Below are positions 23,852 to 42,986 of a stretch of DNA of 53,904 nucleotides, one piece after another (the first letter of the stretch is position 1; every line of letters begins with the position of its first letter). Origin of the DNA: Bacteroidota bacterium (lineage in GTDB: Bacteria; Bacteroidota; Bacteroidia; Bacteroidales; F082); assembly GCA_003650365.1 (NCBI GenBank), contig QMPA01000001.1, positions 1 to 53,904 on the forward strand. Direction: 5' to 3'. The notes below the pieces were generated by a model, which saw only the letters and a program-made list of their open reading frames with translations, was not told where the DNA came from and did not search any database. The position numbers were made by a program, and so were the translations under genes.

Positions 23852-23898
23852 GAATTTAATATTTAGATACTGAGCTTTGTAAAATCATAAAACTTTTT

Positions 23899-24513: not shown

Positions 24514-24516
24514 TCA

Positions 24517-25436: not shown

Positions 25437-25966
25437 TAATAAATTCCTTTATTAATATGTGGGAAATTCTTTTTTGGTATTTGTTTTCCCAGAAACGGGC
25501 AAATCTTTTCCCATCCTTCTCCGGTGGTCAGATCGATTAGCAGTAAATCGTTTGGCCTGTTTTTGAAATACTCTTTTACATCAGCATTATGCTTCTTGTA
25601 TACCCTGAGATAAAGTTCTTCATTCCCAGAAGGATACCCAATACCATAAATCCATTTTCGCATATCTGTACTTTCATTTCCAAAAAAATTCACAACACTT
25701 TTTATCCACTTTTCATCATCCCTAATTGTAAGTATAAACTTACTGCCTGGAAATTTCTTATCTAGTGTTTTGTACAATAATGGCCAGGGGTTATCTTGAA
25801 ATGCGTCATGCTCTTTTACAACTCTAGAAATAGCTTTATACTTTTTTCGTTTTATCGGTTCCAGTAAATCTTTTCGATAACCCGTGACTTTATACCCCAA
25901 CATTTCAAAGGAACTTTTTAAAGTTTTCGTGCCGGTTTTATGAAATCCTATTCCAAATATTTTCAT
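25436..25966 (-). CDS. Sulfotransferase (Sulfotransfer_4-like)
   Basis: MKIFGIGFHKTGTKTL and ILTIRDDEKWIKSV. The ATG at 25966 is preferred over the ORF-track start at 26023. The stop overlaps the radical SAM start (TAATG). Confidence 0.75.
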   Translation of the reverse strand: MKIFGIGFHKTGTKTLKSSFEMLGYKVTGYRKDLLEPIKRKKYKAISRVVKEHDAFQDNPWPLLYKTLDKKFPGSKFILTIRDDEKWIKSVVNFFGNESTDMRKWIYGIGYPSGNEELYLRVYKKHNADVKEYFKNRPNDLLLIDLTTGEGWEKICPFLGKQIPKKNFPHINKGIY

Positions 25967-26124
25967 GTATTTTAGAAGATATTTATTAACACATATTCCG
26001 TACAAATGTACCAAATAGGACAAATGTAATAATCATTAAAAACTAGTTCAGGTTTTAGTTCTATTTTTGGTTAATTAATAGAAGTCCCCTTAAATACGTT
26101 TTGTACATTTTAGTATTTCAATTC

Positions 26125-27181: not shown

Positions 27182-28564
27182 ATGAAAAAGATACATTTAA
27201 TATTTATTGTCTTGCTAACTATAGGCACAAGCTTAAATGCCCAATGGTATGAACTGGTAACACCGACAATTAATTACGAGATAAAAAGTAATAGCTTTAT
27301 TGATCTTGAAATTAACCTTGATGGAGATCCTTATTTACTGTACAACAGTGTAGTGCCTGACGAGGGTAATAAACTATTTGTTCAGAAATATGATATAGAA
27401 AATGAAGAATGGAGTTTACTCGGAGGTGATTATGTTAACGAATTAAATGCTTCAGATAATCATCTGGCCATCGATTCGAAAGGGGTTGTTTATGTTGCAT
27501 TTTTAAAACTGGGTGTTTATAAAAGAGGTTCCTGGTGTACGGTTATGAAGTTTGACGGAACAGACTGGGTTCAAATCGGTGATTGGAATGCAGGTATTAT
27601 TATGTCGGATGTTACAATGTACTGTGATAATCAGGACGATGTTTATGTTTCTTATTATGATGTAGATACCTATTCGAGGCCAATAGTGAAAAGATACCTT
27701 GGTACTGAAAGTGAATGGGAAACCGTAGGAAACTCTACTTTTGTTGAAGCTGGCCAGTGTCTGGGCCCTGCCCTAACAACCGATAACGATGGCAATGTAC
27801 TGGTTTCCTTTGGTGGTGATAATTTCGGTGGCGGGCTTCCGCTTAATGTAGTAAGGTTCAGTGGAGCTGAATGGGAATATGTAGGTGGCAATGGCATTTG
27901 GGACGAACCCAATTATCCTACTACTGTTATTGTGGGTAAAAATAATGTGATTCATACAACCACAACCGATTTCTGGTCGTTAACAAGTACGGTACTTAAT
28001 TATCAAAATGATGCATGGCAGAACCAGTTTGTTGGTATCGATTCATGGTATATGCCATTTGCAAAGTATAACGATGATGTTTATATGGGATATATTGATC
28101 GCAATATTAATGAAAGAGTAAAAGTGAAAAAAGTTGATCATTCAGGAAATTGGTCTGACATTACAGATCAACCTGGTCCATATTACACAACACCGGTTAT
28201 TCCGAGAACTTATTTTGATTTAGAAGTAGATAGCGAAGGAAACCTTTACATTGCAATGCTAAAAGGTGACCAATGGAATAATCATGTTTCTGTACTTAAA
28301 TTGGATGTTATCACCGGGATTGCTGAACCTCAAGATAAAACAATCACAATCTATCCAAACCCAACAAGTGGGATAATTCATATAAATAAATCGCCAGGTG
28401 AACAAATACAAAACGTTTTGATAGTGGATGTTTCCGGGAAACTTGTATTTCAGCAGAATAGTCCCCCGCAAACACTCGATTTGTCGGACCTGAAAAAGGG
28501 AATTTATTTTATTAGGATAAATACCTCAAAGAATAACTATATCGAAAAATTGCTTATTCGTTAG
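27182..28564 (+). CDS. Secreted protein with T9SS type-A C-terminal sorting domain (paralog)
   Basis: Signal peptide MKKIHLIFIVLLTIGTSLNAQ. C-terminal ITIYPNPTSGIIHI...GIYFIRINTSKNNYIEKLLIR. Collinear with 18948-20321 along its whole length. Confidence 0.8.
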   Translation: MKKIHLIFIVLLTIGTSLNAQWYELVTPTINYEIKSNSFIDLEINLDGDPYLLYNSVVPDEGNKLFVQKYDIENEEWSLLGGDYVNELNASDNHLAIDSKGVVYVAFLKLGVYKRGSWCTVMKFDGTDWVQIGDWNAGIIMSDVTMYCDNQDDVYVSYYDVDTYSRPIVKRYLGTESEWETVGNSTFVEAGQCLGPALTTDNDGNVLVSFGGDNFGGGLPLNVVRFSGAEWEYVGGNGIWDEPNYPTTVIVGKNNVIHTTTTDFWSLTSTVLNYQNDAWQNQFVGIDSWYMPFAKYNDDVYMGYIDRNINERVKVKKVDHSGNWSDITDQPGPYYTTPVIPRTYFDLEVDSEGNLYIAMLKGDQWNNHVSVLKLDVITGIAEPQDKTITIYPNPTSGIIHINKSPGEQIQNVLIVDVSGKLVFQQNSPPQTLDLSDLKKGIYFIRINTSKNNYIEKLLIR

Positions 28565-28595: not shown

Positions 28596-30500
28596 TTAGT
28601 TTGTTGCTGTGTCAATTCTTTTCTTTATTTCTTTCATAAAAGAATCATAATCGGTTTTTGTATTGTTATGCCTGCACTTTAACAGGCTAAGGTATGCTTT
28701 TGAATAATCTTTTTCCAAATAATAAACCTTGGAAAGATTATACAAGCCGGCTTCATAATATGGGAATATTTCAAGAGATTGTTTAAAATAGCCAATTGCC
28801 ATTTTGTTGTCACCCATTACTGATGAGGCTATGGCAAGGTTTTTAAGCACCGACACTTGATAAGGTGAGTATTTTAGAGCAAGTTCAAAGTCAGCCAGTG
28901 CCTGCTTGTGTTTATTTAGTTTCATATTGGCCAAACCCCTGTAATTGTGAATGGGCATTGAGTAATTATCAAGGCTTGTAAGTTTTGTAAATGCTTTATC
29001 AGTATTGATTATCATTTTATTAAAACTGTGGGTTTCCTGTGCCTGAAATATTTTTTTTATGTATATCTCTGAACGGAATAGAATACCGGAATAAATTGTT
29101 GCTAAAGCCAAGGCAATTACTGCCAGAACTTGATAAAGTAAAATGGGTTTTCTACTTTTCTGTTTTGGGTTTTCCGGGTATTTATAATAAACACTTATTA
29201 TTCCTGCCATCATTAACGAAAAATATATCTGGTGATTAATCCTTTCCAGCGGAAATGTAAAAAACGCAATGATAAAATAAGCACCAATTCCTGAAATCAT
29301 TAAGGCTGTAAAGATTAGTTTGTCTTTATCTATTTCCTGATAGATAATTTTAAAACTATAAATAGCAATTATTAGAAATAGAAGCAAATAAAACAGCAGT
29401 CCGAAAATTCCTTTTTCTGACAGCACCCAAAGGAAGTCATTATGGGGGCGCCTCCAGTTTAAAAAATTCGATCCATATTTTTGCTGATAATATGGCAATA
29501 CCGTAATTTTCCAGTTTCCGGCCCCAACGCCAAAAATGAGGTTATCCTTTGCCAAATCCCAGGTAGAACCCCACATTTGTAATCGCCCCTGATTGTTGTC
29601 TGATTGAAAGTCAAAAATTGACGAAATCTGATATTTTATCAATTTCGACATATCCGATTTTTTAATAACCAAGTAACTGCCAGATATTACAGTAAAAACG
29701 ATTATTGCAATTATAATTACCTTTTTTAAAAGGCCCGAATTATTGATTGATTTTTTCTTCAGTGCAATTGCTATCCACAATAGCGTAAAGATGACAATAA
29801 AGACCAGAGTAGCTATCCATACTGAGCGGGTTTGCAAAATTGTAATATTGAGTAGTATCATGGCAGTTGAATATAGGCTGAGTACCCACCACCATTTTTT
29901 AAAATTTAAGATGCCGAATAAAACAAATGGAAGCATTAGGAATAATGAAATGGCAAATTGGTTTTTGTGGGCCATTAGTCCTTTTACCCCATATAATGCC
30001 ATTAGCAAATCATTAGAAGAATTGCCCTGAAAAATGATGAAGTATTGAAACAATCCTATCGTGGTAGCAATTATGGAGCTAAATATCACACTTTTGACCA
30101 ATATTGAAATGAAGTTTTTAGTCTGAATAAAGATTCTTGTAGCAAAAATTAACAGGGTAAACGAAAGCAAGGTTTTGGTGATGTCGTATAAGCCTTCTGC
30201 AGGGTTTATGGCTTGGGTTAGTGAAAAAACCGACAATAGGAAATACAAAAAATACGCACGAAAAATTATTAGTCTGATAAAATCAAATTGAGGTTTATTT
30301 CTCTTGTTTTTACTTAGAAAGATGATTGAAAGAGTTAACATAGTAACCCCCCAAAAAAGCAAGCGGGGCGAGAGATTGGGATCTAATGTTCTTGATGAAA
30401 AAATCAAAGGAATAACAACGATAGTTGATACCAATAAGTAGCACAGATCAATTGGTTTTGATTGCTGTTTTAATTTTGTTCCTGGTGATTCTCTTTTCAT
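28596..30500 (-). CDS. O-antigen ligase/polymerase-like membrane protein with C-terminal TPR domain (paralog)
   Basis: RRPHNDFLWVLSEKGIFGLLFY loop, many TM helices, and a TPR-like C-terminus (YRGLANMKLNKHKQALADFELALKYSP..). Confidence 0.75.
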   Translation of the reverse strand: MKRESPGTKLKQQSKPIDLCYLLVSTIVVIPLIFSSRTLDPNLSPRLLFWGVTMLTLSIIFLSKNKRNKPQFDFIRLIIFRAYFLYFLLSVFSLTQAINPAEGLYDITKTLLSFTLLIFATRIFIQTKNFISILVKSVIFSSIIATTIGLFQYFIIFQGNSSNDLLMALYGVKGLMAHKNQFAISLFLMLPFVLFGILNFKKWWWVLSLYSTAMILLNITILQTRSVWIATLVFIVIFTLLWIAIALKKKSINNSGLLKKVIIIAIIVFTVISGSYLVIKKSDMSKLIKYQISSIFDFQSDNNQGRLQMWGSTWDLAKDNLIFGVGAGNWKITVLPYYQQKYGSNFLNWRRPHNDFLWVLSEKGIFGLLFYLLLFLIIAIYSFKIIYQEIDKDKLIFTALMISGIGAYFIIAFFTFPLERINHQIYFSLMMAGIISVYYKYPENPKQKSRKPILLYQVLAVIALALATIYSGILFRSEIYIKKIFQAQETHSFNKMIINTDKAFTKLTSLDNYSMPIHNYRGLANMKLNKHKQALADFELALKYSPYQVSVLKNLAIASSVMGDNKMAIGYFKQSLEIFPYYEAGLYNLSKVYYLEKDYSKAYLSLLKCRHNNTKTDYDSFMKEIKKRIDTATN

Positions 30501-30881: not shown

Positions 30882-31102
30882 GTTTTTGATCCTGAATTAC
30901 TAAAACTATAGAGTCATTTAGCTATGGGCGGAACATTTTATAAATGGATTGGCTATTCAATTTTGACTGGAAAGAGGTAAAAGGACAATTTGAAAGGAGA
31001 GAATACAAGCTTGGCTATGTGGTGGTTGTTAACATGTTTAGTCATTCTTCATTAGTTTATATGATAGGCTTAATGTCAGAACCATTTCCGGGTGGTGGCT
31101 AA
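30882..31102 (+). pseudogene. Decayed fragment of a GT2 gene paralogous to 11685-12593
   Basis: Reads VFDPELLKL*SHLAMGGTFYKWIGYSILTGKR*, then after a frameshift GQFERREYKLGYVVVVNMFSHSSLVYMIGLMSE. The intact gene has ILDYKDKELIQNVGGTFNKWIGYSVLLGMGEKDIGQFDKKEIKLDYVIGASMFCHSSLLQKIGLLSD. The fragment has an in-frame TAG at 30909, a TAA at 30978 and a frame change. Confidence 0.75.
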
Positions 31103-31206
31103 AGAGGTAATTACAATTAAATAGAATATTGAAAAAAATTAATAAAAGATGAATATTCAGAGAGTTTTTATCTTTGAACCGAAAACAAAAAAATGAAAAT
31201 GTTATT

Positions 31207-31665
31207 ATGGAATTATTTGAAACTTTAAAAGTAAATGTACCTAATGTAGTGCATGAAACCATTGATGGGGAAACTATTTTACTTGACTTGAAATCAGGGA
31301 ATTATTTTAGTCTGGATGGTGCAGGTGCCGTCATCTGGGAATTTATTGATAAGACTGGAAATTGGGGAGAAGTCATAAATATAATGACTACTGCTAACCA
31401 AAAACAAAAAAATAATATTTCCAATGCTATAGAAAACTTTGTGAAAAAACTTGTAGAAGAACAATTATTGGTCAAAACCGATGTTGGTGTTAAATCAGTG
31501 GAAACACCTGATTTAACAAAACAACTGGTAGATGCTGCCGGGGACTTTAAAATACCATTGGTTAATAAATACTCTGATATGCAGGATCTTCTATTGCTCG
31601 ATCCGATTCATGATGTGGATGAAAAAGGTTGGCCCGAAAGCAAAGACAATCAACCCGAAAGTTAA
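31207..31665 (+). CDS. PqqD-like (RRE-type peptide-binding) protein with ~60-aa acidic C-terminal extension
   Basis: ETIDGETILLDLKSGNYFSLDGAGAVIWEFIDKTGNWGEVINIM has the typical PqqD-family beta-strand/helix pattern. The tail DFKIPLVNKYSDMQDLLLLDPIHDVDEKGWPESKDNQPES ends in Ser. The ORF-track start at 31174 is TTG. The first ATG is at 31207. Confidence 0.7.
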   Translation: MELFETLKVNVPNVVHETIDGETILLDLKSGNYFSLDGAGAVIWEFIDKTGNWGEVINIMTTANQKQKNNISNAIENFVKKLVEEQLLVKTDVGVKSVETPDLTKQLVDAAGDFKIPLVNKYSDMQDLLLLDPIHDVDEKGWPESKDNQPES

Positions 31666-31721
31666 TGCCTGATTATAGTGATTAAACACTTTATTTTCCT
31701 CGATCTTTCACCCACCCTTTT

Positions 31722-32876
31722 ATGAGCAAGAATTCCAATAGCCCTTTTCCAAACAAATCGCAGGAATTGTTATTACAGGCTGCCTTGTTGAAGGGGGAGC
31801 CGATGAAGAAGGCCTGGAATGAGTGGAAGTTGGCTGTCGATTTTGAAAAGGATATAGCGTATGCATCTTTCAGAATGCTCCCACTATTGTACAATAATTT
31901 ACATACACAAGGTGTTAAAGATGCATTAATGCCTCGCCTCAAAGGGATGTATCGCAAGTCATGGTCGAATAATCATTTGCTTTTTCACAAGACGGCCAAA
32001 GTGTTAAAATTATTGCATAGCAATGAAATCCCAACAATAGTTATGAAAGGGATTGCTTTAACGATCGAGGTTTACAAAAATTATAGCGTAAGGCCCATGG
32101 CCGATATGGATATTCTTGTCCCGCTTGCACAATCCGGAAAAACGATTGATATACTTAAAAATGAAGGTTGGATTTTACAAAATGAACAGTACCTGGAATT
32201 CAACCTGAAATATGGCCGCAGTGCTACTTTTCACGATTCCGAAAAAACTGAATTGGACCTGCACTGGCATCCCATTTTTGAAGCTCATGATAATATTTCT
32301 AAAGATGATTTTTGGGATAGCTCTGTATCGCTTGAAGTAGCAGGGGAAAAAACACGTGCTTTTTGTTTGACAGACAACTTTTTCCACACCATTGTACATG
32401 GCTTAAGGTACAATCCCGAACCACCCATTCGCTGGGTTGCCGATGCATTTACAATATTGAATTCAGAAGACTGTATTATTGACTGGAACAGGCTATTGCG
32501 CCATACCAAAAAGTTTAGGGTTTCGCTTCAAATGAAAGATGCATTGAATTATCTTATCGAAAATTTTCAGGCACAGGTTTCCCGGAATTTTCTTGAGGAA
32601 CTTGATAAGATAAAATCAACTTTCTCTGATCGCTTGGTGTTCCATCATGCCAAAAAGTATGGTGACGACAATCCGAAAACGGTGTATGAAAAACTATATT
32701 CAGTTTATGCTGCCTACTTGCGGCAATCAAAACATACTGGCTTATGGGTACAGCACATTGGTTTTGTCAGGTATATGCATTTTCGTACAAAAGAAAAACC
32801 ATATTTCAGAATCTTGATTTATTATTCTTCATTGCTGTTTAAAAAAACGAAAAAAACTAAAATCAAGCCTGATTGA
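31722..32876 (+). CDS. Uncharacterised nucleotidyltransferase family protein (NTP_transf_5-like)
   Basis: IPTIVMKGIALTIEVYKNYSVRPMADMDILVP and ELDLHWHP match the characteristic core of this family. Confidence 0.7.
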   Translation: MSKNSNSPFPNKSQELLLQAALLKGEPMKKAWNEWKLAVDFEKDIAYASFRMLPLLYNNLHTQGVKDALMPRLKGMYRKSWSNNHLLFHKTAKVLKLLHSNEIPTIVMKGIALTIEVYKNYSVRPMADMDILVPLAQSGKTIDILKNEGWILQNEQYLEFNLKYGRSATFHDSEKTELDLHWHPIFEAHDNISKDDFWDSSVSLEVAGEKTRAFCLTDNFFHTIVHGLRYNPEPPIRWVADAFTILNSEDCIIDWNRLLRHTKKFRVSLQMKDALNYLIENFQAQVSRNFLEELDKIKSTFSDRLVFHHAKKYGDDNPKTVYEKLYSVYAAYLRQSKHTGLWVQHIGFVRYMHFRTKEKPYFRILIYYSSLLFKKTKKTKIKPD

Positions 32877-32884
32877 TAAAGAAA

Positions 32885-34579
32885 ATGAGATTGTTCAAAA
32901 AAAATAGGCAAATACTCCCCTACTTTTCTAAGGAAGCATGGCAATATTATATGCAGTTCTTCAAAGGACAGGGCAGGAAAATGATTGCGGTTTCAGCAGG
33001 ATCAACAGCTCAGGCTACCCTCATTATTCCTATTTTACTTTTGGTTAGGTATATCTTCGATGTGGCAATTCCTGCAAAAGATGTTGTGGTGCTTATCTAC
33101 ATAGGATTAGCCATTATTGGGATCAGATTGATTAATGCAGCTACCACGCTTTTCCTGAGAAAAATTAATATTAAAATTGTAACAACGGCTATCTTCAAAC
33201 TTCGTGAAGACCTGATGATTAAGGTTCTTTCGCTTTCCAGATCTTTCTATACGCACGAAGATCAGCGGGTATTGCATACCCGAATTGTCCAGGATACTGA
33301 GCGGATTATGCGGATGAGTAATGCGCTGATATCAAGTCTAATACCTGCCATTTTGATCAGTATCGGACTTGGTGTAATTCTATTGGTATTAAACTGGTTC
33401 CTGTTTCTTGCAATTTTATTGTTTTTCCCGGTTATCTTCTTTTCAAGCCGTTTTATGGGAAAAATTGTTAAAAAGCGTGTATTTGCCTACCAACGGGCTT
33501 TCGAAGGTTTTAGTAAAGGGGTTATGTTTGTTATGAAGTTTTTGGACTTAATAAAAGTTCAATCGGCAGAACCTTATGAAAGTCAAAAACAAATTGAAAC
33601 CCTAAGGGATTTACAGGAAAAAACAACCCGTAGAACATACTTCTTTGCAGTAAACGGGCAGGTGCAAACATTTTTGGTTGGCATTTCCGGTATCATAGTA
33701 ATAGTCATCGGGGGTATTTCTGTAATTAAGGAGATAATGACAATTGGCGACTTTTTTGCTTTCTACATTGCAGCAAACCGTCTTCAATCCACTATCAATA
33801 CCATTACCAGTTCGTTTGCAAATATTGTTACCGGAAACGAATCACTTATTACTTTGTATGATATTGCTTCCAACCGCGAAACAGAGCCTTATTCGGGGAA
33901 TAAAAAGATTGATTTTTCTGGAGATATAAAATTTGAATCGGTTTCATTTAAGTATACCGAAAAACCTGTTTTAAAGGACATTTCGCTACAATTAACACCC
34001 AACAGCAGACTAGCTATAATAGGGGCGAACGGTGCAGGAAAATCAACCATTATTAATTTAATACTGGGGTTTTATGCGCCACAATCCGGAAATATTACTG
34101 CCGATGGAATACCATTTTTAGATGTAGATTTTCAGCACTTTAGAAGATATATTGGTGTTGTATCGCAACATCCATTGCTAATACCTGGAACCATTCGCTA
34201 CAATATTGATTATGGAAGCGAGTGGGCAAATGAGCAGGATGTGCTTACTGCATCCAAACTTGCACTTGCCCATGATTTTATTGCTGAACTTCCCGATGGC
34301 TACGAAACACAGATTGGTGAAGATGGTGTATTGCTTTCGGGAGGTGAGCGGCAAAAAATTGCTATTGCGAGGGCGTTACTTCGACGGCCCAAACTGTTAA
34401 TTCTTGATGAGCCTACCAATCACTTTGATCTTCTAGCAGTGAAAAAAATTATGCAAAGTATTCAAGATATTGATTACTCTCCGGCAATTCTGATTATTAG
34501 TCACGATATGCAAGTAGTAAGTACTGCTAAACAAATTTTCATACTTGAAGATGGCTATCTGAACCCGTATAAAAACTAA
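32885..34579 (+). CDS. ABC exporter, fused permease + ATPase (MsbA/McjD-like architecture)
   Basis: Six-helix N-terminal half. Walker A GANGAGKST, signature LSGGERQKIAIARALL, Walker B LLILDEPTNHFD. No N-terminal C39 peptidase domain. The ATG at 32885 is preferred over the TTG at 32873. Confidence 0.9.
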   Translation: MRLFKKNRQILPYFSKEAWQYYMQFFKGQGRKMIAVSAGSTAQATLIIPILLLVRYIFDVAIPAKDVVVLIYIGLAIIGIRLINAATTLFLRKINIKIVTTAIFKLREDLMIKVLSLSRSFYTHEDQRVLHTRIVQDTERIMRMSNALISSLIPAILISIGLGVILLVLNWFLFLAILLFFPVIFFSSRFMGKIVKKRVFAYQRAFEGFSKGVMFVMKFLDLIKVQSAEPYESQKQIETLRDLQEKTTRRTYFFAVNGQVQTFLVGISGIIVIVIGGISVIKEIMTIGDFFAFYIAANRLQSTINTITSSFANIVTGNESLITLYDIASNRETEPYSGNKKIDFSGDIKFESVSFKYTEKPVLKDISLQLTPNSRLAIIGANGAGKSTIINLILGFYAPQSGNITADGIPFLDVDFQHFRRYIGVVSQHPLLIPGTIRYNIDYGSEWANEQDVLTASKLALAHDFIAELPDGYETQIGEDGVLLSGGERQKIAIARALLRRPKLLILDEPTNHFDLLAVKKIMQSIQDIDYSPAILIISHDMQVVSTAKQIFILEDGYLNPYKN

Positions 34580-34602
34580 GATGGAAAAATAGAAAAAGAA
34601 AA

Positions 34603-35331
34603 ATGCAAGAAAAGAAAAACAAAACTTTAGAAACAACTCACCCATTGGTCAGCATCATTATTCCCACATACAATCATGGAAAATATTTACATGATGCACT
34701 AAGCAGTGTTTTTGCTGATTCATATTCACCCAAAGAAGTAATTGTTGTAAACGATGGTTCAACTGATAATACTGCCGAAATTGCAGCGTCATTTCCTCAT
34801 CTGCAATATATTTATCAAAAAAACCAAGGTGTTGCAGTGGCACGAAATACTGGAGTTCGAGCTGCAAAAGGTAAATACATAGCCTTTCTCGATAGTGATG
34901 ATATTTGGATGGCCGGACGCATAAAACGCACAATTGACTATTTTTTAAAACATCCTGATGTTGAATATGTGCTTGCTCAACAAAAAATGTTTCTGGAAAA
35001 GGATTACCCAAAACCTGCACATATTGAACAAGCATGGTTAGAAAAGCCGATAGATACATCGGGCTCTGGTGTATTAACTGTGCGACGTTCTTGCTTTGAA
35101 AAGATTGGGCTTTTTAACCCTGATTATCAGATAGGCGAGGACACGGAGTGGTTTCTTAGGGCAAACGAGGCAAATATACTGGTGGGCAGAATGGATTTTG
35201 TTGCTATCAAACGAAGGATTCATGGTGCAAACCTTACAGTTGCCCAAGTTAAAGAAGCCAGGTTTAGTTTGTTTAAAATGATGAAGGAATCGATTGAGAG
35301 AAAAAAGGGGGCAGCATCGAAAAATAGTTGA
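34603..35331 (+). CDS. Family 2 glycosyltransferase
   Basis: VSIIIPTYNHGKYLHDALSSVF..VIVVNDGSTDNT, FLDSDD, and later GEDTEWFLRA. Confidence 0.85.
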   Translation: MQEKKNKTLETTHPLVSIIIPTYNHGKYLHDALSSVFADSYSPKEVIVVNDGSTDNTAEIAASFPHLQYIYQKNQGVAVARNTGVRAAKGKYIAFLDSDDIWMAGRIKRTIDYFLKHPDVEYVLAQQKMFLEKDYPKPAHIEQAWLEKPIDTSGSGVLTVRRSCFEKIGLFNPDYQIGEDTEWFLRANEANILVGRMDFVAIKRRIHGANLTVAQVKEARFSLFKMMKESIERKKGAASKNS

Positions 35332-35335
35332 AATA

Positions 35336-37891
35336 ATGGATAAACCTGTCAAAACAGAAATTGAACAAATTGCCTTTTATCAGCAATGTTTAAGCAGATT
35401 TGATCAAGCTGCTAAAAACACAGGGATAGTCCACAGGTATTATTCAATTGCCGGAACGCATGTTTGTTTGTGTTTTGCCGGTGAGGCAATGATTCCGTAC
35501 ATGACACCTGCGCTCGAACATTTACGCATACCTGAAATGTCAAATCCTGACATGACGATTCATGTTTGGGATACTTTTTCCACAAAAATAGAAATGCCAC
35601 CACCACCATGCGAATGGGCCGATTTTACCGATAGAGGTGATATTTGGGGTTTTAACAGCAAGCGGATAAAAACTGCTTTTCACTGGAGCGAGTATTCTGT
35701 AAATGTGATGGATATGCTTTCCAACTCGGGAGTGTATTGGGTTAAAAACCCCAAAGCACTGCCATATTGGGTTTATTCCTCTCCTTTTCGGTCGATGATA
35801 CAATGGTGGATGGAGAAAAACAATTGCCAGCTTCTCCATGCGGCAGCAGTTGGCACCGAAAATGGAGCCGTTTTAATTACAGGAAAAGGAGGTGTTGGAA
35901 AATCAACCACTGCCATCAGTAGTATCAATGCCGGTTTGTTTTATCTATCAGATGATTATGTGATTGTAAAAAAAGGAAGCGATCCCAAAGTTTATAGCCT
36001 TTATTCTACGGCAAAGCTGAATATGGAGGATATGCCGAAGTTTCCAACATTGCAAAAGTTTGCCGGACAGGTTGTTGAAGAAGACCAGGAAAAAGCTGTA
36101 TTGTTTCTTTATCCGGAACTTAAAAATCAGCTAAAAAGGGAAATGCCACTTAAAGCTATTCTTACGCCTAAAATTATTGAACAGAAAAACAGCGAAATTT
36201 TACAAACTTCTTTTTGGCCTGTTCAGCGGGCGATGTCGTTTACCACCATGTCGCAACTTCCAGGCGTTGGAAGCCATACCCACCAATACATCAGTGCGCT
36301 CACCAAACAATTACCCTGTTATACCATTGGTTTGGGAAGGGATTTGAATGAGATACCGAAGGTTATTGCTAACTTATTGGCGCATCCCGAAAATTTTACT
36401 TTTCAGAATATTGAAACAAATCAACATGTTGAATACCCACTTATTAGCATTGTTATGCCTGTTTTTAATGGTGAACGCTTTATCAATGAAGCCATTGAAA
36501 ATATACTAAATCAAAACTATCCTGCCATTGAAATTATTATTATTGATGATGGTTCGACCGATAACTCAAAAACAGTAATTGATGAACTGCCGGTTGATGT
36601 ACGTTATTTCCACCAGCCCAATGCCGGACCTGGTGCAGCCCGAAATCGTGGTATCAGGGATGTGTCAGGAGATTATATAGCATTTTTAGATGTTGATGAT
36701 TTGTGGCCCGAAAAAAATCTGGAAATGCTGATGAACCACTTGCAACAAAATCCTAAGCTGGATATTGTAAGGGGATATGCACAGTTGCTAAATGTTGATG
36801 ATGATGGAAAGGCAATATATATTGGAAATCCGCAGGAGTCATTTCCTGATTATATTGGTGCCGGATTGTACCGGAAATCGGTTTTTAGTACTGTTGGATT
36901 GTATGATCCTGAATTGAGGTTTGGCGAAGATGGTGATTGGTTTAACCGGGCACAGGAAATAAATACAAACATAAAAAGGCTAGATGAAGTTACGCTGTAC
37001 GTGCGCCGTCATGATAAGAACATGACAGAGGGCAAAAGCCTGGTAGAACTCAATATGCTCAAAGTGTTTAAAAAGAAATTGGAAAGGACGCGCAATCAGA
37101 AGCCTCTTGAGTCTGCTACCCCTTCTAAAAATACGAACATATCCAATCCATTGATTAGTGTAATTATCCCGGTTTATAATGGTGCAGCATTTTTGGCCGA
37201 TGCTATAAGCAGCGTTTTGAACCAGCACCATAACCCGCTCGAGATTATTGTGGTTGACGATGGTTCAACCGACAAAACTGCTGAGGTAGTACAAATGATG
37301 GCCGACAACATCAAATATATTTTTCAGGAAAACAAAGGTGTTGCGGCTGCCCGAAATAAAGGACTGGAAATGGCCAGAGGAACATACATTGCTTTTTTGG
37401 ATGCTGATGATGTTTGGGGTGAAAGCAAACTCGCACGACAGATTGAACTATTGAATGAAAATACAACAATTGGTGGTGTAATTGGTTCAACCTATCAAAT
37501 ACCGCTTTCGATGGAATTGGAACAGGCATTTTCTGAATCAGTAGAAAAAGGCATGTTTATGATGTGTCTTGGTGGCTCGCTTTTCAGGAAAAGTGTTTTT
37601 AAAAAAGTGGGTAATTTTGATGAAGAAATGTTTTCTGCGGAGGATATTGACTGGTTTTTTAGAGCAAGGGAATCAAAGCTTCATATTCTTATCCATAAGG
37701 ATGTTGTCCTGTATTTTAGGCTGCACGGAAAAAATATTTCCAACGACAAAAAAAAGGTAAATTTCTATCTTTTAAAAGCCTATAAAAAATCAATAAGTCG
37801 ACGGAAAAAATCAGGAAAAAATCAGACAATAAAATTTCCAAAGCTTGATAATGTTGATGAGGTGATGAAGTTTTGGCAATCGAACGATTGA
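35336..37891 (+). CDS. Three-domain fusion: HPr-kinase-like P-loop domain + GT2 + GT2
   Basis: The N-terminal ~375 aa contain LHAAAVGTENGAVLITGKGGVGKSTTAISSINAGLFYLSDDYVIV, the same layout as the HprK/P C-terminal catalytic domain (P-loop at 35882-35908). GT2 domain 1 is ISIVMPVFNGERFI..IIIIDDGSTDNS..FLDVDD. GT2 domain 2 is ISVIIPVYNGAAFL..IIVVDDGSTDKT..FLDADD. The ATG at 35336 lies 5 nt after the upstream stop. Confidence 0.75.
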   Translation: MDKPVKTEIEQIAFYQQCLSRFDQAAKNTGIVHRYYSIAGTHVCLCFAGEAMIPYMTPALEHLRIPEMSNPDMTIHVWDTFSTKIEMPPPPCEWADFTDRGDIWGFNSKRIKTAFHWSEYSVNVMDMLSNSGVYWVKNPKALPYWVYSSPFRSMIQWWMEKNNCQLLHAAAVGTENGAVLITGKGGVGKSTTAISSINAGLFYLSDDYVIVKKGSDPKVYSLYSTAKLNMEDMPKFPTLQKFAGQVVEEDQEKAVLFLYPELKNQLKREMPLKAILTPKIIEQKNSEILQTSFWPVQRAMSFTTMSQLPGVGSHTHQYISALTKQLPCYTIGLGRDLNEIPKVIANLLAHPENFTFQNIETNQHVEYPLISIVMPVFNGERFINEAIENILNQNYPAIEIIIIDDGSTDNSKTVIDELPVDVRYFHQPNAGPGAARNRGIRDVSGDYIAFLDVDDLWPEKNLEMLMNHLQQNPKLDIVRGYAQLLNVDDDGKAIYIGNPQESFPDYIGAGLYRKSVFSTVGLYDPELRFGEDGDWFNRAQEINTNIKRLDEVTLYVRRHDKNMTEGKSLVELNMLKVFKKKLERTRNQKPLESATPSKNTNISNPLISVIIPVYNGAAFLADAISSVLNQHHNPLEIIVVDDGSTDKTAEVVQMMADNIKYIFQENKGVAAARNKGLEMARGTYIAFLDADDVWGESKLARQIELLNENTTIGGVIGSTYQIPLSMELEQAFSESVEKGMFMMCLGGSLFRKSVFKKVGNFDEEMFSAEDIDWFFRARESKLHILIHKDVVLYFRLHGKNISNDKKKVNFYLLKAYKKSISRRKKSGKNQTIKFPKLDNVDEVMKFWQSND

Positions 37892-38061
37892 TGTAAGTTT
37901 TGCGAAAACAATCACTATAGAACTGGAAACACCATAATTGGCTTAGTAATGAAGGTACTTAATGGAATACAATTTTTTGTAGTGGACATACAAAATATGC
38001 AGAAAAGAAACGTTTGATGTTTTCCTGTAATTAATTATCATCAAAACATAACTTATTTATC

Positions 38062-38754
38062 ATGTCGAAAAAACAAGAGATTAGTGTCGTTATTCCTGTG
38101 TATAATACAGAAAAGTATTTGGATCAGGCCATTGAAAGTGTGTTGAAGCAAAATGAAAAACCCTTGGAAATTATTGTCGTAGATGATGCCTCAAGCGACA
38201 ACAGCATAAATGTTGCAGAGCAATTTGGTAATAAAATTACACTACTGAAGCAGCCTAATAATAATGGTTGTGGGGCATCACGAAATCGTGGGATTGAGCA
38301 TGCAAATGGAAAATATCTGGCTTTTATTGATGCCGATGATTTATGGACGAGTGGTAAACTAAAGAATCAACTTGCTTATCTTGAAAATAATCCGGACATC
38401 GATATGGTATTTGGAATGGTGGAACAATTTATCAGTCCTGAATTATCAGATATTGATAAAAATAAACTGCGTGATGAATTAAAAAAAATGCCAGGTTATG
38501 TGGCAGGGGCCATGCTCATCTGCAAAGAAACTTTTCTGAAAGTGGGCTTGTTAAATGAAAAACTTGAACTTGGTGAATATATCGATTGGTTCAGCCGGGC
38601 AAAAGATATGGGATTGAAATTTCACCTGTCTGACGCTGTGGTACTAAAGCGACGTATTCATACAAGCAATATGGGTATTTATAAGCGCCAACATCTCAAA
38701 GACTATACGGCTATCCTCAGGGAAGCACTGGCACGAAAACGTATGAAAAAATAG
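38062..38754 (+). CDS. Family 2 glycosyltransferase
   Basis: ISVVIPVYNTEKYLDQAIESVL..IIVVDDASSDNS..FIDADD. Confidence 0.85.
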   Translation: MSKKQEISVVIPVYNTEKYLDQAIESVLKQNEKPLEIIVVDDASSDNSINVAEQFGNKITLLKQPNNNGCGASRNRGIEHANGKYLAFIDADDLWTSGKLKNQLAYLENNPDIDMVFGMVEQFISPELSDIDKNKLRDELKKMPGYVAGAMLICKETFLKVGLLNEKLELGEYIDWFSRAKDMGLKFHLSDAVVLKRRIHTSNMGIYKRQHLKDYTAILREALARKRMKK

Positions 38755-38758
38755 AAAC

Positions 38759-39493
38759 ATGTCGCTGTCTATGAATAAAACTAAGTTTATCCTTTTTGTG
38801 CAAGGACGATCGGGAAGTAACCTTTTGCGCGATCTTTTAAATGCCCATCCCGATATTCAATGCGATAGTGAGTTGTTTAAGGCAGACCCAAATCATATTA
38901 CAGCCCAGAAGATCAACAAGATCATTTTAAAAATCCCAGCTTCATTTGTCGAATCGCGTTGTCGGCTTTCCAAGCAGAATGTTTATGGTTTTGTACTCAT
39001 GGATTACCACTTAAAAAATCCCGGAGTATTAATAAAGCAACTTTATCAATCAGGATGGAAGATTATTTATGTATCGAGAAATGATCTGATGGCTCAGTGT
39101 TTTTCAAATCTTTTAGCACAAAAAACCAATCACTGGCACAACCGATCGAATAAGTTAGAAGCAACTTATAAAGTGAAAATTACAAAAGAAGAACTGTTAG
39201 ACGAGTTGAACTGGTGGGTGGCAAGAAAGAAAAATGAAGAAAACATCCTTAAAGGAATAAAAGCTTACCATGTAATTTATGAAGACAATTTGCAGGACAA
39301 GGCAGATTGGCCCAATACTACACATAAACTCTTTGAATATCTTGGTGTAGATCCGGTTCCTGTTAGCTCCACTTTTCAAAAAACATATTCGCGTCACTAT
39401 TCCGACATTATCAATAACTATGATGAGTTAATGGATTCATTAAAAAATACAACATATCAACATTTAATTCCTGATCAATTCAAAGCATTATAA
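38759..39493 (+). CDS. Stf0-like sulfotransferase (paralog 1 of 3)
   Basis: FILFVQGRSGSNLLRDLL (PAPS P-loop) and IIYVSRNDLMAQCFSNLLAQKTNHWH, which follows the Stf0-type R-x-D..Q..S..A..T pattern. Confidence 0.7.
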   Translation: MSLSMNKTKFILFVQGRSGSNLLRDLLNAHPDIQCDSELFKADPNHITAQKINKIILKIPASFVESRCRLSKQNVYGFVLMDYHLKNPGVLIKQLYQSGWKIIYVSRNDLMAQCFSNLLAQKTNHWHNRSNKLEATYKVKITKEELLDELNWWVARKKNEENILKGIKAYHVIYEDNLQDKADWPNTTHKLFEYLGVDPVPVSSTFQKTYSRHYSDIINNYDELMDSLKNTTYQHLIPDQFKAL

Positions 39494-39505
39494 ATTGACC
39501 AAGAA

Positions 39506-40222
39506 ATGAAACAAAAAACAAATTTCATTGTGTTTGGACAAGGTCGTTCGGGAAGTAACCTGCTGGTAGATCTGTTGAATTCGCATCCAGCTATTCATTG
39601 TGATATGGAATTATTGAATAAAAATCAGTTGGCAAGAAAAAACAAAATATTCCGATCGTTTGTTTATAATTTCCCATACCATTACATCAAACGAAAGATG
39701 AAAAGGAGTAGTAGTAAACTTTATGGGTTTAAACTCATGTACCACCAATTAGAGAATCATGAAAAAATAAGGCCTAAACTGTTCAACGAAAACTGGAAAA
39801 TTATTCATATTCAACGAAAAGATATTTTTGCACAAACACTTTCTACTCTTATTGCTAAAAAGACAGGAAAGTATATTCGCAAGCACCAAGATGTGGTTGA
39901 TAATATAGTTTTACGCATTGAACCCCAAAATGTTGCTGAAGATATAAGCCTCAGGTTAAGAGCTATAAAATACGAATTAGAAGTACTGATCGGACTAAAC
40001 TACTTTGACGTGGTGTATGAAAATGACCTGGCCGACAGTAACAGTTGGAATGAAAGTATGGAAGGTGTTTTTAAGTATCTTGGTGTGCCACCTATAGAAG
40101 TTTCAGCAACGACTTTAAAAACAGATAACAGAACAAATGAAGAAAGAATATCGAATTATTCTGAAATTTTAGAATACTTGAGTAATTCCAAGTTTAGTTA
40201 CTTACTTGAGCAAAAAGCCTAA
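39506..40222 (+). CDS. Stf0-like sulfotransferase (paralog 2 of 3)
   Basis: FIVFGQGRSGSNLLVDLL and IIHIQRKDIFAQTLSTLIAKKTGKY. Confidence 0.7.
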   Translation: MKQKTNFIVFGQGRSGSNLLVDLLNSHPAIHCDMELLNKNQLARKNKIFRSFVYNFPYHYIKRKMKRSSSKLYGFKLMYHQLENHEKIRPKLFNENWKIIHIQRKDIFAQTLSTLIAKKTGKYIRKHQDVVDNIVLRIEPQNVAEDISLRLRAIKYELEVLIGLNYFDVVYENDLADSNSWNESMEGVFKYLGVPPIEVSATTLKTDNRTNEERISNYSEILEYLSNSKFSYLLEQKA

Positions 40223-40250
40223 TTCTGAAAACATATTTCATCCATTAACT

Positions 40251-40961
40251 ATGCTACAAAATAAAAAAACCGGGTTTATTATATACGGACAAGGTAGGTC
40301 GGGAAGTACTCTCCTGAAACAATTGTTCAATTCACATCCTGAAATTAATTGTGAAGGGGAATTGCTAAACATAAAGGAAAATTATGTGACCAACCCATTC
40401 CTGGTAAAACTTGTAAATAAATTCCCTTTCAGGTTCTTCAATTTTCGCAGACAGATTTCAAAACTACCTGTTTACGGCTTTACCCTCTTACAATACCAAA
40501 TATCTAATCATCGGAAAATGCTGTTAAAAATGCAGGCTTCCAGATGGAAAATCATTCACCTTATTCGTGAAGATTCATTTGAGCAAAGCTTATCACATTT
40601 TGTTGCAAAGCAAACCAATTTTTGGCACAGGCGAATGGAGAAGGAAAATACAACTCCTTCTATTTTTATCGATCCTATTGCATTTTCTTCCTGGTATGTC
40701 AGGTTAGAAAAAAACAAAAAACGTTCAGAGCATTTTCTGAAGCATATTGAACATAAAACAGTTTTATATGAGCAAGATTTGTCGAATGAAAAGCAATGGC
40801 CCGAAACCATGAAAAGCTTATTTGCGTTTCTTGGTGTCAGGAATTCCCCAGTCAATGCATCACTTAAAAAAACCTATAAGAAGCCCTATTCGCAAATTGT
40901 GGAAAATTATGATGAATTATTAGAAAGTATCAGACAAAACGACATCACTTCAAATTTCTGA
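40251..40961 (+). CDS. Stf0-like sulfotransferase (paralog 3 of 3)
   Basis: FIIYGQGRSGSTLLKQLF and IIHLIREDSFEQSLSHFVAKQTNFWH. The ATG at 40251 is preferred over the TTG at 40206, which overlaps the upstream gene. Confidence 0.7.
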   Translation: MLQNKKTGFIIYGQGRSGSTLLKQLFNSHPEINCEGELLNIKENYVTNPFLVKLVNKFPFRFFNFRRQISKLPVYGFTLLQYQISNHRKMLLKMQASRWKIIHLIREDSFEQSLSHFVAKQTNFWHRRMEKENTTPSIFIDPIAFSSWYVRLEKNKKRSEHFLKHIEHKTVLYEQDLSNEKQWPETMKSLFAFLGVRNSPVNASLKKTYKKPYSQIVENYDELLESIRQNDITSNF

Positions 40962-42027
40962 ATCCTTTTGTAAAAGATCTCAATCTTTTCATTTTATTAT
41001 TAAACCTTTCTTTAAAACACATCCCCGGTTTGCTGGCAGGATTATACTTGAATGAATTTTTTAGAAATCTTAAAAACAAGGGGATAGTTCTTTGGAATGA
41101 TTGGATATATTTTGTGGCAAGTGCAAAATCAATAGCAATTTCAGGGAATGAATTTTTAGCATTTACAGCTATCCTTAAATCAGGAGCTTCAAACAGTCGT
41201 TTGTATCTTACATTCCCGAAGTGATTAAGTACTAATGCTTGTGGATAGTTTGTTGAAATAACATGAAAACTATCATCAAAGTTAAGTACACCATCCCAAT
41301 TTAAGGATGATTGTTGAACTCTCTTCCTAACTTCTTCCTGTTTGGTTTTTACCTCGTCGTATATTTCTGCATCTAATTTCCTCAATGAGGAATCATCCAT
41401 AAACAAGTAGTCGATTAAATGATGGCCAAAACCATTTATTGAATAGTCGAGTTCAGGATATTTACAGCAAAGAGTAAGACCAGTACCAACAGTTAAAGTT
41501 TTTTTTCTTGTCCATGGTTTTTGGTAACCTAAAGGTGCATTTTCAGTATAAAAAAAGTCCCACTGAACCACATTTTTGCAAGCAAAAACCATCATTGGGA
41601 AATTCTCATTTTTTTTATGCAGTGCATTAATATTCTCATGTATATATTTTGTAAATCCGCGAAATAAACCATCATCACAACCTAAAATGGTTGTGGTAAT
41701 ATAATTGGTCTGAGGAGAAATATAGGTCTTCAGCCAGTTCAAGTTGTTTTCATCAATTTCTGGAGAATAATCATGCAGTCGGGTGTTCCGAATTTCTTTT
41801 ATGAGATTGTGCATCCTATTTCTGAATTTATCAGGTAGTTTTGGATCGACAATAATGACCCAGCTAAAATCTTTGCGAATCTGGGCTTTTAAACTAGCTA
41901 AAGTTACAATCTCAAATAATTTAAGCCGATGTTCTAAAATATGAACATTTAAAGGGTCAGGCCATTTATTCTTATTGAAACCCGGCCTTCGATAACTGAA
42001 TGGAGAGATGATAAAGTGTTGGATCAT
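40945..42027 (-). CDS. Putative rhamnosyl-transferase-family (glycosyltransferase-like) protein
   Basis: The N-terminal pattern ISPFSYRR..LEHRLKLFEIVTLASLKAQIRKDFSWVIIVDPKLP resembles the RFSY..R..LFE..LPSL..Q..F.W pattern of that family. Convergent with, and overlapping by 17 nt, the last sulfotransferase gene. Confidence 0.55.
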   Translation of the reverse strand: MIQHFIISPFSYRRPGFNKNKWPDPLNVHILEHRLKLFEIVTLASLKAQIRKDFSWVIIVDPKLPDKFRNRMHNLIKEIRNTRLHDYSPEIDENNLNWLKTYISPQTNYITTTILGCDDGLFRGFTKYIHENINALHKKNENFPMMVFACKNVVQWDFFYTENAPLGYQKPWTRKKTLTVGTGLTLCCKYPELDYSINGFGHHLIDYLFMDDSSLRKLDAEIYDEVKTKQEEVRKRVQQSSLNWDGVLNFDDSFHVISTNYPQALVLNHFGNVRYKRLFEAPDLRIAVNAKNSFPEIAIDFALATKYIQSFQRTIPLFLRFLKNSFKYNPASKPGMCFKERFNNKMKRLRSFTKGFRNLK

Positions 42028-42155: not shown

Positions 42156-42986
42156 TTGAAGACATTAATCAAGTTAGTAGTTATATCTGTCCTTATCATC
42201 ATTATTTCTGCCTGCAATTTTGAAAAAAGGAAACAAGCGTCCGGCGACACTGAAAGTAGTAAGCCGGGCAGTCAGGTGTTTTTAATTGGAAATGAGTTCA
42301 ATATAAAAAAAGCCGTTAATAAAATGATTGAAAAATCAGGAATTAGAAACGGTGGCTATGTTGTGATTATTCCTACATCATTTCAAGTAAATGATAGAAA
42401 GGCCAAATTATTAAGCAAGGAATTTAACAAGCAAGGGATTGTGGCAGTTCATGTATTAGGTTTCCCTTTTAAACCCAAAGAGGAATCATCCCGGATGTCA
42501 ATAAAAAATACGGATGTTCTTGCCATTGAAAATGCAAGTATCCTTTGCCTTCTTGATGGAAAAATAAATAAATTTATGAAGTTGGCCAAAGAAACCCGCC
42601 TGAAAAAAGCATTGCTAAAAGCAAAAGAAAAGGGTACACTGATTGCCGGGATTGGCAATGGAGCATCTATTTTGGGGGATAATTATTTTTTTTGGTTTAA
42701 GGATAAAAAAACAAACAAGAAAAAAATTGCATTGACACCGGGGTTGGGATTGTTGGAGAATACTGTTGTAGACGATCTTACTTTCTTAAAGAATAACAGG
42801 AAGAGAATAAGAAAAGAAACCAGTAGGGAAAACTTCCTGTTTATTGGAATGGCTAAAAAGGCTTCTGTTTATATTGAAGGTATAGATGCTGTTGTTTTAA
42901 GCGAGACAGAAATTAGCTTGGTGCATCCCGATTCAACTGCAATAAAGCTTGGTATTGGAGATAAGTTTTTCCTGCTGCCAAAATAA
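42156..42986 (+). CDS. Lipoprotein, cyanophycinase/peptidase S51-like (paralog)
   Basis: Lipobox IIIISAC. GGYVVIIPTSF, VLAIENASILCLLDGKINKFMKL, GTLIAGIGNGASILG. TTG start as given in the ORF track, with no nearby in-frame ATG. Confidence 0.5.
   Translation: MKTLIKLVVISVLIIIISACNFEKRKQASGDTESSKPGSQVFLIGNEFNIKKAVNKMIEKSGIRNGGYVVIIPTSFQVNDRKAKLLSKEFNKQGIVAVHVLGFPFKPKEESSRMSIKNTDVLAIENASILCLLDGKINKFMKLAKETRLKKALLKAKEKGTLIAGIGNGASILGDNYFFWFKDKKTNKKKIALTPGLGLLENTVVDDLTFLKNNRKRIRKETSRENFLFIGMAKKASVYIEGIDAVVLSETEISLVHPDSTAIKLGIGDKFFLLPK

Follow-up and report, generated by a model that had tools for sequence, protein, structure and literature searches.

A stretch of 53,904 nucleotides from a Bacteroidota bacterium (GenBank assembly GCA_003650365.1, contig QMPA01000001.1; Bacteroidales, F082), referred to here as the window, carries a block of genes at 31207-42027 that very probably represents a conserved, non-lasso cassette that resembles the clusters for linear polyphosphorylated peptides (LPPs). 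In this cassette, a recognition element (RRE) of the type found in pathways for peptides that are made on the ribosome and then modified post-translationally (RiPPs) is encoded together with an HprK-like kinase, an NTP_transf_5 nucleotidyltransferase and family 2 glycosyltransferases (GT2). Chance falls far short of explaining how the block is arranged, given that its gene set is found again across phyla. In the reading that we favour, with a probability of roughly 40%, the kinase and the NTP_transf_5 protein would start a phospho-linked glycan on a stretch of peptide that the RRE holds (most probably the tail of the RRE protein itself), and the GT2s would extend it. A first-pass annotation, made from the sequence alone, had described the block as a lasso-type tailoring and export gene set without cyclase, protease or precursor, wired to glycosyltransferases.

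Gene organisation of the block

The open reading frames (ORFs) of the window were mapped, and those of at least 150 aa were scanned with Pfam. All coordinates are window positions. The genes of the block, with two elements inside the RRE protein, are as follows.

31207-31665, + strand: PqqD-fold RRE protein, 152 aa, with a C-terminal extension (Pfam PqqD 38.1 bits; gathering score 23.4)
31546-31563, + strand: leader-type motif F114-K-I-P117-L-V119 ([F/Y]xxPx[V/L/I/M]) in the tail of the RRE protein
31567-31638, + strand: most conserved segment of the RRE protein, K121-Y-S-D-M-Q-D-L-L-L-L-D-P-I-H-D-V-D-E-K-G-W-P-E144
31722-32876, + strand: NTP_transf_5 nucleotidyltransferase-fold protein, PsmN/LppN-like (Pfam 133 bits)
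32873-34579, + strand: ABC exporter, a half-transporter with transmembrane and nucleotide-binding domains, B-family, MsbA-like (Pfam ABC_membrane and ABC_tran)
34603-35331, + strand: GT2 glycosyltransferase (Pfam Glycos_transf_2 121.7 bits)
35336-37891 (ORF from 35294), + strand: fusion of a predicted HprK/PEPCK-like kinase domain (35336-36406) with two GT2 domains (Pfam, NCBIfam, AlphaFold2, Foldseek)
38062-38754, + strand: GT2, conserved last member of the GT2 row (Pfam 126 bits)
38759-39493, + strand: sulfotransferase 1 (Sulfotransfer_3 36.7 bits; Stf0 under cut-off; PAPS loop GQGRSGS)
39506-40222, + strand: sulfotransferase 2 (Sulfotransfer_3 28.3 bits)
40206-40961, + strand: sulfotransferase 3 (Sulfotransfer_3 37.8 bits; Stf0 24.7 bits, cut-off 22)
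40945-42027, - strand: Rhamno_transf-family glycosyltransferase, convergent with the block (Pfam 58.8 bits)

The ORF map and the Pfam scan reproduced the ORF positions and the gene order given in the first-pass annotation. Its description of tightly packed genes was also correct, since the spacing between block genes ranged from -4 to 56 nt with the sole exception of 170 nt before 38062, and its domain calls held in the profile searches, with corrections for HprK and Stf0 that are given below. Four GT2 domains are present in the block, two of which are fused to the kinase, and the Rhamno_transf-family gene overlaps sulfotransferase 3 by 17 nt. The RRE gene most likely starts at ATG 31207 and the fusion gene most likely at ATG 35336 (851 aa), five bases past the upstream stop; for sulfotransferase 3, ATG 40251 is the more likely start. 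Rfam and promoter/terminator scans across the block gave nothing over background.

Distribution and conservation of the cassette

A collection with one genome per species was scanned with an alignment of the RRE, and relatives were found in at least 484 stretches, from which 80 loci (designated by L numbers) were kept. The gene for the RRE protein with its tail thereby occurs in at least 484 species genomes. About 16 phyla are represented among the 80 loci kept, which include two cultured strains, Rhodohalobacter sulfatireducens WB101 (L016) and Rhodohalobacter sp. 614A (L001), and no Bacillota. The core proteins of the window were run by tblastn against all loci, and genes were counted in those loci, 53 after removal of redundancy, whose sequence continues for at least 9 kb downstream of the RRE gene. 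The kinase was present in 52 of these, NTP_transf_5 in 49, two or more GT2s in all 53, the ABC exporter in 32 and sulfotransferases in 9. In 64 of 73 loci, the gene directly after the RRE gene encoded either NTP_transf_5 (32) or the kinase (32). Six contexts annotated with Pfam, which come from Balneolota, Desulfobacterota, a Bacteroidota-like source, Planctomycetota and other metagenomes, all read RRE, NTP_transf_5, (ABC), kinase::GT2 and then two to four GT2s. The genes that follow the core in these six contexts were variable, comprising GT1/GT4, GT8, GT10, O-FucT-like proteins, methyltransferases, epimerases, radical SAM (rSAM)/SPASM proteins, sulfotransferases and a carbamoyltransferase. 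The core of the cassette is an RRE protein, an HprK-like kinase that is usually fused to GT2, NTP_transf_5 and two to seven GT2s. The public names of the cassette proteins are only "PqqD family protein" and "glycosyltransferase".

The RRE protein and its C-terminal tail

The first-pass call of a PqqD-like protein was borne out by a Pfam score over the gathering score and by a fold match to lasso B1 proteins. The AlphaFold2 model (predicted local distance difference test, pLDDT, 84) gave leader-bound lasso B1 proteins as its best folds in the PDB, namely TbiB1 (5v1v/5v1u, template modelling (TM) score 0.84) and 6jx3, and the best NCBIfam match, the Bacillota lasso B1 model, scored 45.7 bits where the cut-off is 80. 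The beta3 residues of the RRE are conserved as in a functioning peptide-binding site. The protein family comprised 1178 matches, and the nearest named homologues were from metagenome-assembled genomes of Bacteroidales and Lentimicrobiaceae.

The protein consists of an RRE fold of ca. 90 residues, a helix (101-112), the leader-type motif, the almost invariant segment of 24 residues and 4 to 18 variable, mostly acidic residues. Residue 120, between V119 of the motif and K121, is N, and the tail consensus after the motif is KY[S/T]DMQDLLLLDPIHDVDExGWPE. Among 258 diverse members, position 114 was F/Y/W in 91%, 117 was P in 90%, 122 was Y/F in 98% and 123 was S/T in 89%; in alignment A2 (67 sequences), all but one had V/L/M/I at position 119. 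D124, M125, L131, D132, P133, I134, H135, G141, W142 and P143 were invariant in an 88-sequence alignment. When the tail was searched on its own against 1.84 billion representative proteins, 1779 clusters at 50% identity were obtained, in which the match was always C-terminal and the proteins were ca. 150 aa long; the short matches resembled truncated gene calls, and stand-alone tail peptides were rejected as a candidate. No second copy of the tail motif was found. One cassette (L087) has a second RRE paralogue at 12496-12960 of that locus, whose tail keeps FxxPxVNKYTD and GWPE and has lost DMQDLLLLDPIHDV.

The motif has the form of the [Y/W]xxPx[L/V/I/F/A] leader motif bound by the discrete RREs of lasso and LPP pathways (PMC13381572). 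The AlphaFold2 model is confident for residues 101-122 (pLDDT above 90), where it puts a strand at 119-122, and it predicts disorder for the conserved segment (pLDDT 49-67). The model suggests that the leader-type motif may be bound in cis by the RRE domain of the same protein, and it fits a picture in which the leader-like part is held by the RRE and the remainder offered to partners. In the covariation analysis, the RRE-tail pair E85-K121 ranked 6th of ca. 10,000 pairs. The tail had been listed in the first-pass annotation as the third of three candidate peptides, and it proved to be the strongest lead.

The kinase fusion and the other enzymes of the block

The N-terminal part of the fusion had been called HprK-like. 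Its Pfam Hpr_kinase_C score of 26.5 bits is under the gathering score of 33.3, so that Pfam did not sustain this call, whereas the P-loop, weak NCBIfam matches and the predicted fold did. Residues 1-357 matched HprK_rel_B (TIGR04355) at 34.0 bits and HprK_rel_A (TIGR04352) at 30.3 bits, both against a cut-off of 200, HPr kinase at 25 bits, which is far under the cut-off, and ScmC (TIGR04249) at 14.1 bits against 125. An HprK-type P-loop region, "LLHAAAVGTENGAVLITGKGGVGKST", is present in the domain, and so is "HAAAVGTENGAVLITGKGGVGKST", the HprK-type Walker A sequence expected in the HPr kinase/phosphorylase superfamily (P-loop kinases like phosphoenolpyruvate carboxykinase, PEPCK). The AlphaFold2 model (pLDDT 92) matched PEP carboxykinases in Foldseek (E 1e-10, TM 0.55-0.58 over the query) as well as HPr kinase 1knx (E 4e-6). 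Because the weak NCBIfam matches, the P-loop and the fold match agree, the domain is predicted to be a kinase of the PEPCK/HprK superfamily that lies outside every named family.

A search with the kinase domain found 679 proteins, and the best 120 of them were mostly kinase::GT2 fusions of ca. 600 aa with 53-75% identity, whose named sources were Bacteroidota, Balneolaceae, Planctomycetota, Nitrospirota, Syntrophales and Dadabacteria. The 851-aa kinase::GT2::GT2 triple fusion recurs in seven loci (L008, L010, L013, L019, L064, L065 and L085), and in L004 and L001 the counterpart of its second GT2 is a gene of its own, adjacent on the downstream side. The GT2 at 38062-38754 shares 47-70% identity with the last GT2 in L001, L002 and L004, and the order ABC, GT2 (34603-35331 in the window), kinase fusion is also seen in L010, L077 and L087.

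In the NTP_transf_5 protein, the nucleotidyltransferase motif G-x(n)-D128-M-D130 is intact; a search of this protein against PDB sequences gave no match. The matches of the ABC exporter in NCBIfam and the PDB were generic (MsbA, TAP, P-glycoprotein and bacteriocin exporters) and fit the export of a peptide or of a lipid-linked glycan alike. The three genes annotated as Stf0 sulfotransferases do encode sulfotransferases, but they fit Sulfotransfer_3 better: all three pass that family and keep the loop GQGRSGS for 3'-phosphoadenosine 5'-phosphosulfate (PAPS), while the Stf0 (PF09037) scores were 24.7, 19.5 and 19.7 bits against a gathering threshold of 22, which one of the three passes. Sulfotransferase 2 is a paralogue of the other two (34-39% identity). 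Rows of three sulfotransferases also occur in L004 and L009, and two occur in L010 before the sequence ends. The Rhamno_transf-family gene has two homologues at the same position in L004/L005 and is outside the cross-phylum core.

Search for a precursor and for lasso and LPP components

Neither an asparagine-synthetase-like macrolactam synthetase nor a transglutaminase-like B2 peptidase (Transglut_core3) gave a Pfam match in the window ORFs of at least 150 aa or in the six annotated contexts, and the ORFs of 90-150 aa in 28-45 kb were all antisense inside larger ORFs. Signal-peptidase families, including Peptidase_S26 (LppS-type), were likewise not found in the annotated window ORFs or the six contexts, and no recurrent unlabelled family of the size of an SpI peptidase was found across the loci. 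The six contexts also contained no family of initiating phosphoglycosyltransferases or Wzx flippases.

When 2131 intergenic ORFs (12-100 aa) from 82 loci were clustered, no conserved small precursor ORF was obtained. The only cluster shared between loci was rejected, since it comes from Balneolales, where the antisense strand of a putative tRNA gene just upstream of the cassette (L001 ca. 7965-8066, L015, L016 and L017) yields the conserved "ORF" GFEPRTFALPARRSSQLSYSP. Within 10 kb of the cassette, no candidate substrate gene recurred in 85 loci. The LPP precursor motif YxxPxVLxHQxIxFETxxS gave 0 matches when the window and 88 loci were searched for the pattern in all six frames; all that is present of it is the shorter [F/Y]xxPx[V/L/I] part, which lies within the RRE protein. 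The 15-aa ORF at 31149-31196 and the 22-aa ORF at 37949-38017, which had been proposed as candidate peptides, had no counterparts in other loci. The 707-nt gap that precedes the RRE gene contains a 52-aa ATG ORF (30944-31102, +), which was rejected as a precursor as well; it shares 51% identity over 35 aa (E 5e-8) with an internal part (12177-12281) of the GT2 gene at 11685-12593 and is probably what is left of a duplicated glycosyltransferase gene. The absence of cyclase, protease and precursor, as stated in the first-pass annotation, therefore holds in the window and in every related locus examined. The same annotation had considered that homologous loci might always carry these three parts just outside the block; the gene-neighbourhood comparison came out negative on this point.

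Surroundings of the block in the window

The block had been placed inside a polysaccharide locus, and this setting is real: a separate, apparently complete Wzx/Wzy-type polysaccharide locus lies at 264-13449, with its own initiating Bac_transf sugar transferase (6809-8185), a Wzy_C+TPR protein, two GT2s, Wzy_C, GT4, a Wzx-like flippase, GT1, a sulfotransferase and a further GT2. At 13.5-30.5 kb lie more sulfotransferase genes, along with an AlgX/MBOAT pair, genes for radical SAM proteins and for two proteins with a type IX secretion system (T9SS) sorting tail, Peptidase_S51 and the following gene.

28596-30500, - strand: membrane protein with Wzy_C (O-antigen ligase/polymerase-like) and TPR (Pfam)

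This Wzy_C+TPR protein is the only one outside the block that recurs beside the cassette. Its homologues adjoin the cassette in L019, L064, L085 and L087, which are of Bacteroidota type, and are absent from most loci, which hints at a lineage-specific accessory ligase or polymerase step. The two Wzy_C+TPR paralogues of the window (264-2435 and 28596-30500, -) are 32% identical.

Nine sulfotransferase genes are present in the 54 kb, including the three of the block. The stretch 10835-26023 is unusually dense in them and covers four Pfam families (Sulfotransfer_1/3 at 10835, 13554 and 17889, Sulfotransfer_2 at 17327, and Sulfotransfer_4 at 23899 and 25436). The T9SS-tailed proteins (18948-20321 and 27182-28564) are paralogues with 58% identity and ca. 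460 aa, in which a T9SS C-terminal sorting domain follows an N-terminal region of ca. 380 aa without a Pfam match; no homologues of them were found near other cassettes. From their known distribution, such sorting domains point to a Bacteroidota host. Proteins of 464 and 466 aa without a Pfam match in L001 and L002 were rejected as extra core parts: they share no relationship with one another or with the T9SS proteins of the window, and they represent a fucosyltransferase-like pair and a multi-pass membrane protein. Two Peptidase_S51 (cyanophycinase-like) paralogues with 43% identity (26101-26952 and 42156-42986) flank the cassette region, and a processing role for them is unsupported, these genes not being found beside the cassette in other loci. 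A radical SAM/SPASM gene lies at 20341-21243, a short (179-aa) radical SAM gene at 24897-25436 (-) and the AlgX + MBOAT O-acylation pair at 21240-23851 (-). The rSAM/SPASM genes beside the cassette in L002/L003 and L088 are not orthologous to those of the window.

Proposed function of the cassette and alternative explanations

Based on these results, the function of the cassette was hypothesised to be as described below. The RRE domain would bind the [F/Y]xxPx[V/L/I] strand of its own tail, by which the KY[S/T]DM...DPIH...GWP segment would be fixed beside the enzymes. The kinase would phosphorylate a residue of the presented segment, comparable to the action of PsmK (pseudomycoidin) and LppK (LPPs) on Ser, with Ser/Thr123 as the leading candidate. 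The NTP_transf_5 protein would attach the first sugar to this phosphate, a step taken by PsmN in pseudomycoidin, and the two enzymes together would stand in for an initiating phosphoglycosyltransferase, which the cassette lacks. The kinase-fused GT2 and then the free GT2s would lengthen the chain, which may be decorated in a lineage-specific manner (in the window, by three sulfotransferases and an enzyme of the rhamnosyltransferase family), and the ABC exporter, where present, would carry the product across the inner membrane. We infer that the most economical acceptor is the tail of the RRE protein, in which Ser/Thr123 lies six residues after P117. That this tail is the acceptor is a tentative proposal, held with slightly less confidence than the priming reaction as a whole. 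The fuller version, in which the RRE protein is an auto-precursor that binds its leader in cis and receives a phospho-linked oligosaccharide on the tail, giving a protein-primed glycan or glyco-RiPP in place of lipid-carrier priming, is more doubtful still.

Several observations weigh against this proposal. Position 123 is not Ser/Thr in 11% of the 258 members, and in a few, such as P0184, P0195 and P0202, neither Ser nor Thr occurs anywhere between the FxxP motif and the C-terminus; a plain Ser/Thr acceptor in the tail is, therefore, not a feature of all members. The near-invariant tail fits a protein-protein docking element equally well, RiPP cores being usually variable, and the covariation between the RRE and residues 114-123 was not enriched as a class. 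It would be unusual to spend one 17-kDa protein per product and to export it by a B-family ABC half-transporter, and 40% of the loci have no exporter. GT2s of such size are typical of lipid-linked glycan assembly.

One alternative explanation does without a peptide product. The cassette may build a lipid-linked or other non-peptide glycan, such as a side chain of a capsule or exopolysaccharide (sulfated in the window), and the RRE protein with its tail would then be a scaffold or regulatory subunit, whose pseudo-leader fills the RRE groove and whose tail docks the kinase::GT2 protein, while the kinase acts on a sugar or lipid or regulates glycosyltransferases. The position of the block in a polysaccharide region agrees with this, as do the accessory genes, which are all of glycan type (GT1/GT4, O-FucT-like, methyltransferases, epimerases and sulfotransferases), and the Wzy_C+TPR proteins that recur beside the cassette in Bacteroidota. 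The near-invariance of the tail parallels the conservation of kinase::GT2 (53-75% identity across phyla), the tail is free of Ser/Thr in some members, and the closest fold of the kinase is that of PEP carboxykinase, a small-molecule kinase. However, the six annotated contexts contain no family for initiation or flipping of such a glycan, the RRE shows, in its fold and its beta3 residues, the conservation of a working peptide-binding site, and every characterised set of RRE, HprK-type kinase and NTP transferase targets a ribosomal peptide (PMC6993621, PMC13381572). We regard this explanation as unlikely, yet as one to be taken seriously.

It is less probable again that the RRE recruits a separate [Y/W/F]xxP-type peptide or protein, encoded elsewhere and modified and exported as LPPs are, with the cis tail serving as a placeholder or docking element. 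Discrete RREs normally work in trans, and since LppB is insoluble without bound leader (PMC13381572), a built-in placeholder could stabilise the RRE protein; peptide-maturase-like rSAM/SPASM enzymes accompany some cassettes, and T9SS-tailed proteins lie near the cassette in the window and in L004. On the other hand, RiPP precursors almost always cluster with their RRE, and the searches described above found no conserved small ORF or recurring substrate gene within 10 kb (85 loci) and no LPP-type motif (window and 88 loci), nor do the T9SS proteins of the window have homologues near other cassettes. As for an ordinary lasso cluster stripped of cyclase, protease and precursor by rearrangement, the RRE is indeed most similar to lasso B1 proteins, and a set of kinase, NTP transferase, sulfotransferase and ABC genes is typical of paeninodin-like clusters (PMC13381572). 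The same layout without cyclase and protease nevertheless occurs in at least 484 species, with about 16 phyla among the kept loci and catalytic motifs intact, and Asn_synthase and Transglut_core3 are absent from 6/6 annotated contexts. This explanation is, accordingly, hardly credible and effectively refuted.

With 1779 protein clusters (50% identity) and at least 484 species, the cassette is common, and it ties RiPP-type recognition and putative phospho-priming enzymes directly to a row of glycosyltransferases. It may, thus, show the nature of the end products of the "kinase + NTP transferase" pair in LPP and paeninodin pathways and the reason for the capsule-locus setting. An RRE that carries its own leader-type motif would, if true, be a new use of the fold, and if the tail is the acceptor, glycan synthesis would be primed by a peptide with no need for a lipid-carrier initiating enzyme. 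The two cultured Rhodohalobacter carriers make the question directly testable.

Comparison with known systems

The pairing of an HprK-related kinase with a PqqD-family protein, which had been mentioned in the first-pass annotation, is catalogued in NCBIfam as HprK_rel_A, HprK_rel_B and ScmC/ScmD. These families resemble the cassette in that a PqqD-family protein is paired with an HprK-like P-loop protein outside lasso clusters, and the SCM (SynChlorMet) cassette also contains rSAM/SPASM enzymes, as do some of the cassettes found here. In contrast, the cassette scores 24 bits with ScmD (TIGR04248) against a cut-off of 100, and its scores with HprK_rel_A/B and ScmC are also far under the cut-offs. 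Because of these low NCBIfam scores, the cassette is, at the sequence level, a relative and not a member of the HprK_rel_A, HprK_rel_B, ScmC and ScmD families. Mycofactocin provides another parallel: its pathway combines the RRE protein MftB with the GT2 MftF, a highly conserved peptide segment and a product with a GT2-extended oligosaccharide. The GT2s of the cassette give partial matches to MftF that are far under the MftF cut-off, and the cassette core differs in having no MftC-type radical SAM enzyme, no MftE peptidase and no separate MftA.

The likeness to the tailoring set of paeninodin and pseudomycoidin, pointed out in the first-pass annotation, is real, as the same four protein classes (RRE, HprK-type kinase, NTP transferase and ABC exporter) share the same annotation. 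In the pseudomycoidin pathway, the HprK-family kinase PsmK phosphorylates the C-terminal Ser, after which one or two hexoses are added to the phosphopeptide, a reaction that needs PsmN, an "uncharacterised NTP transferase" (PMC6993621). The cassette differs from these clusters in having no macrolactam synthetase, B2 protease or precursor and in having dedicated GT2s and sulfotransferases alongside. Literature searches on the cassette found no description of it, and none relevant for PF14907 or ScmC either. The pathway had been called undescribed, which stands for the cassette itself, but the LPPs, a non-lasso family of Bacillota, were published in 2026 (Popov et al., Nat Commun; PMC13381572). 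LPP clusters comprise a precursor (LppA), an RRE (LppB), a kinase (LppK) that polyphosphorylates Ser3 of the RRE-presented core peptide, an SpI-like peptidase (LppS), an MsbA-like exporter and an NTP transferase (LppN); they lie within capsule loci, have no known final product and are stated to be restricted to Bacillota (PMC13381572). The cassette shares with them a core of discrete RRE, HprK-like kinase, NTP transferase and MsbA-like exporter (the exporter in 32/53 related loci), a setting among the many glycosyltransferase genes of polysaccharide loci and a leader motif of the type [Y/W]xxPx[V/L/I]. LPP clusters differ in that their precursors (YxxPxVLxHQxIxFETxxS) have genes of their own, one to three in number, and that an SpI-like (archaeal-type signal peptidase I) leader peptidase is encoded, whereas in the cassette the RRE protein itself contains the motif, kinase and GT2 are fused, the core includes GT2s and the carriers fall in about 16 phyla other than Bacillota. 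The cassette, thus, works like the tailoring half of paeninodin and pseudomycoidin biosynthesis and like the LPP pathway, yet it is a member of neither, because it has no cyclase, B2 protease or precursor on the one hand and no SpI peptidase or LppA-type motif on the other. What is new in the cassette is the leader-type motif and the invariant tail in the RRE protein, the kinase::GT2 fusion, the GT2s of the core and the occurrence in about 16 phyla outside Bacillota.

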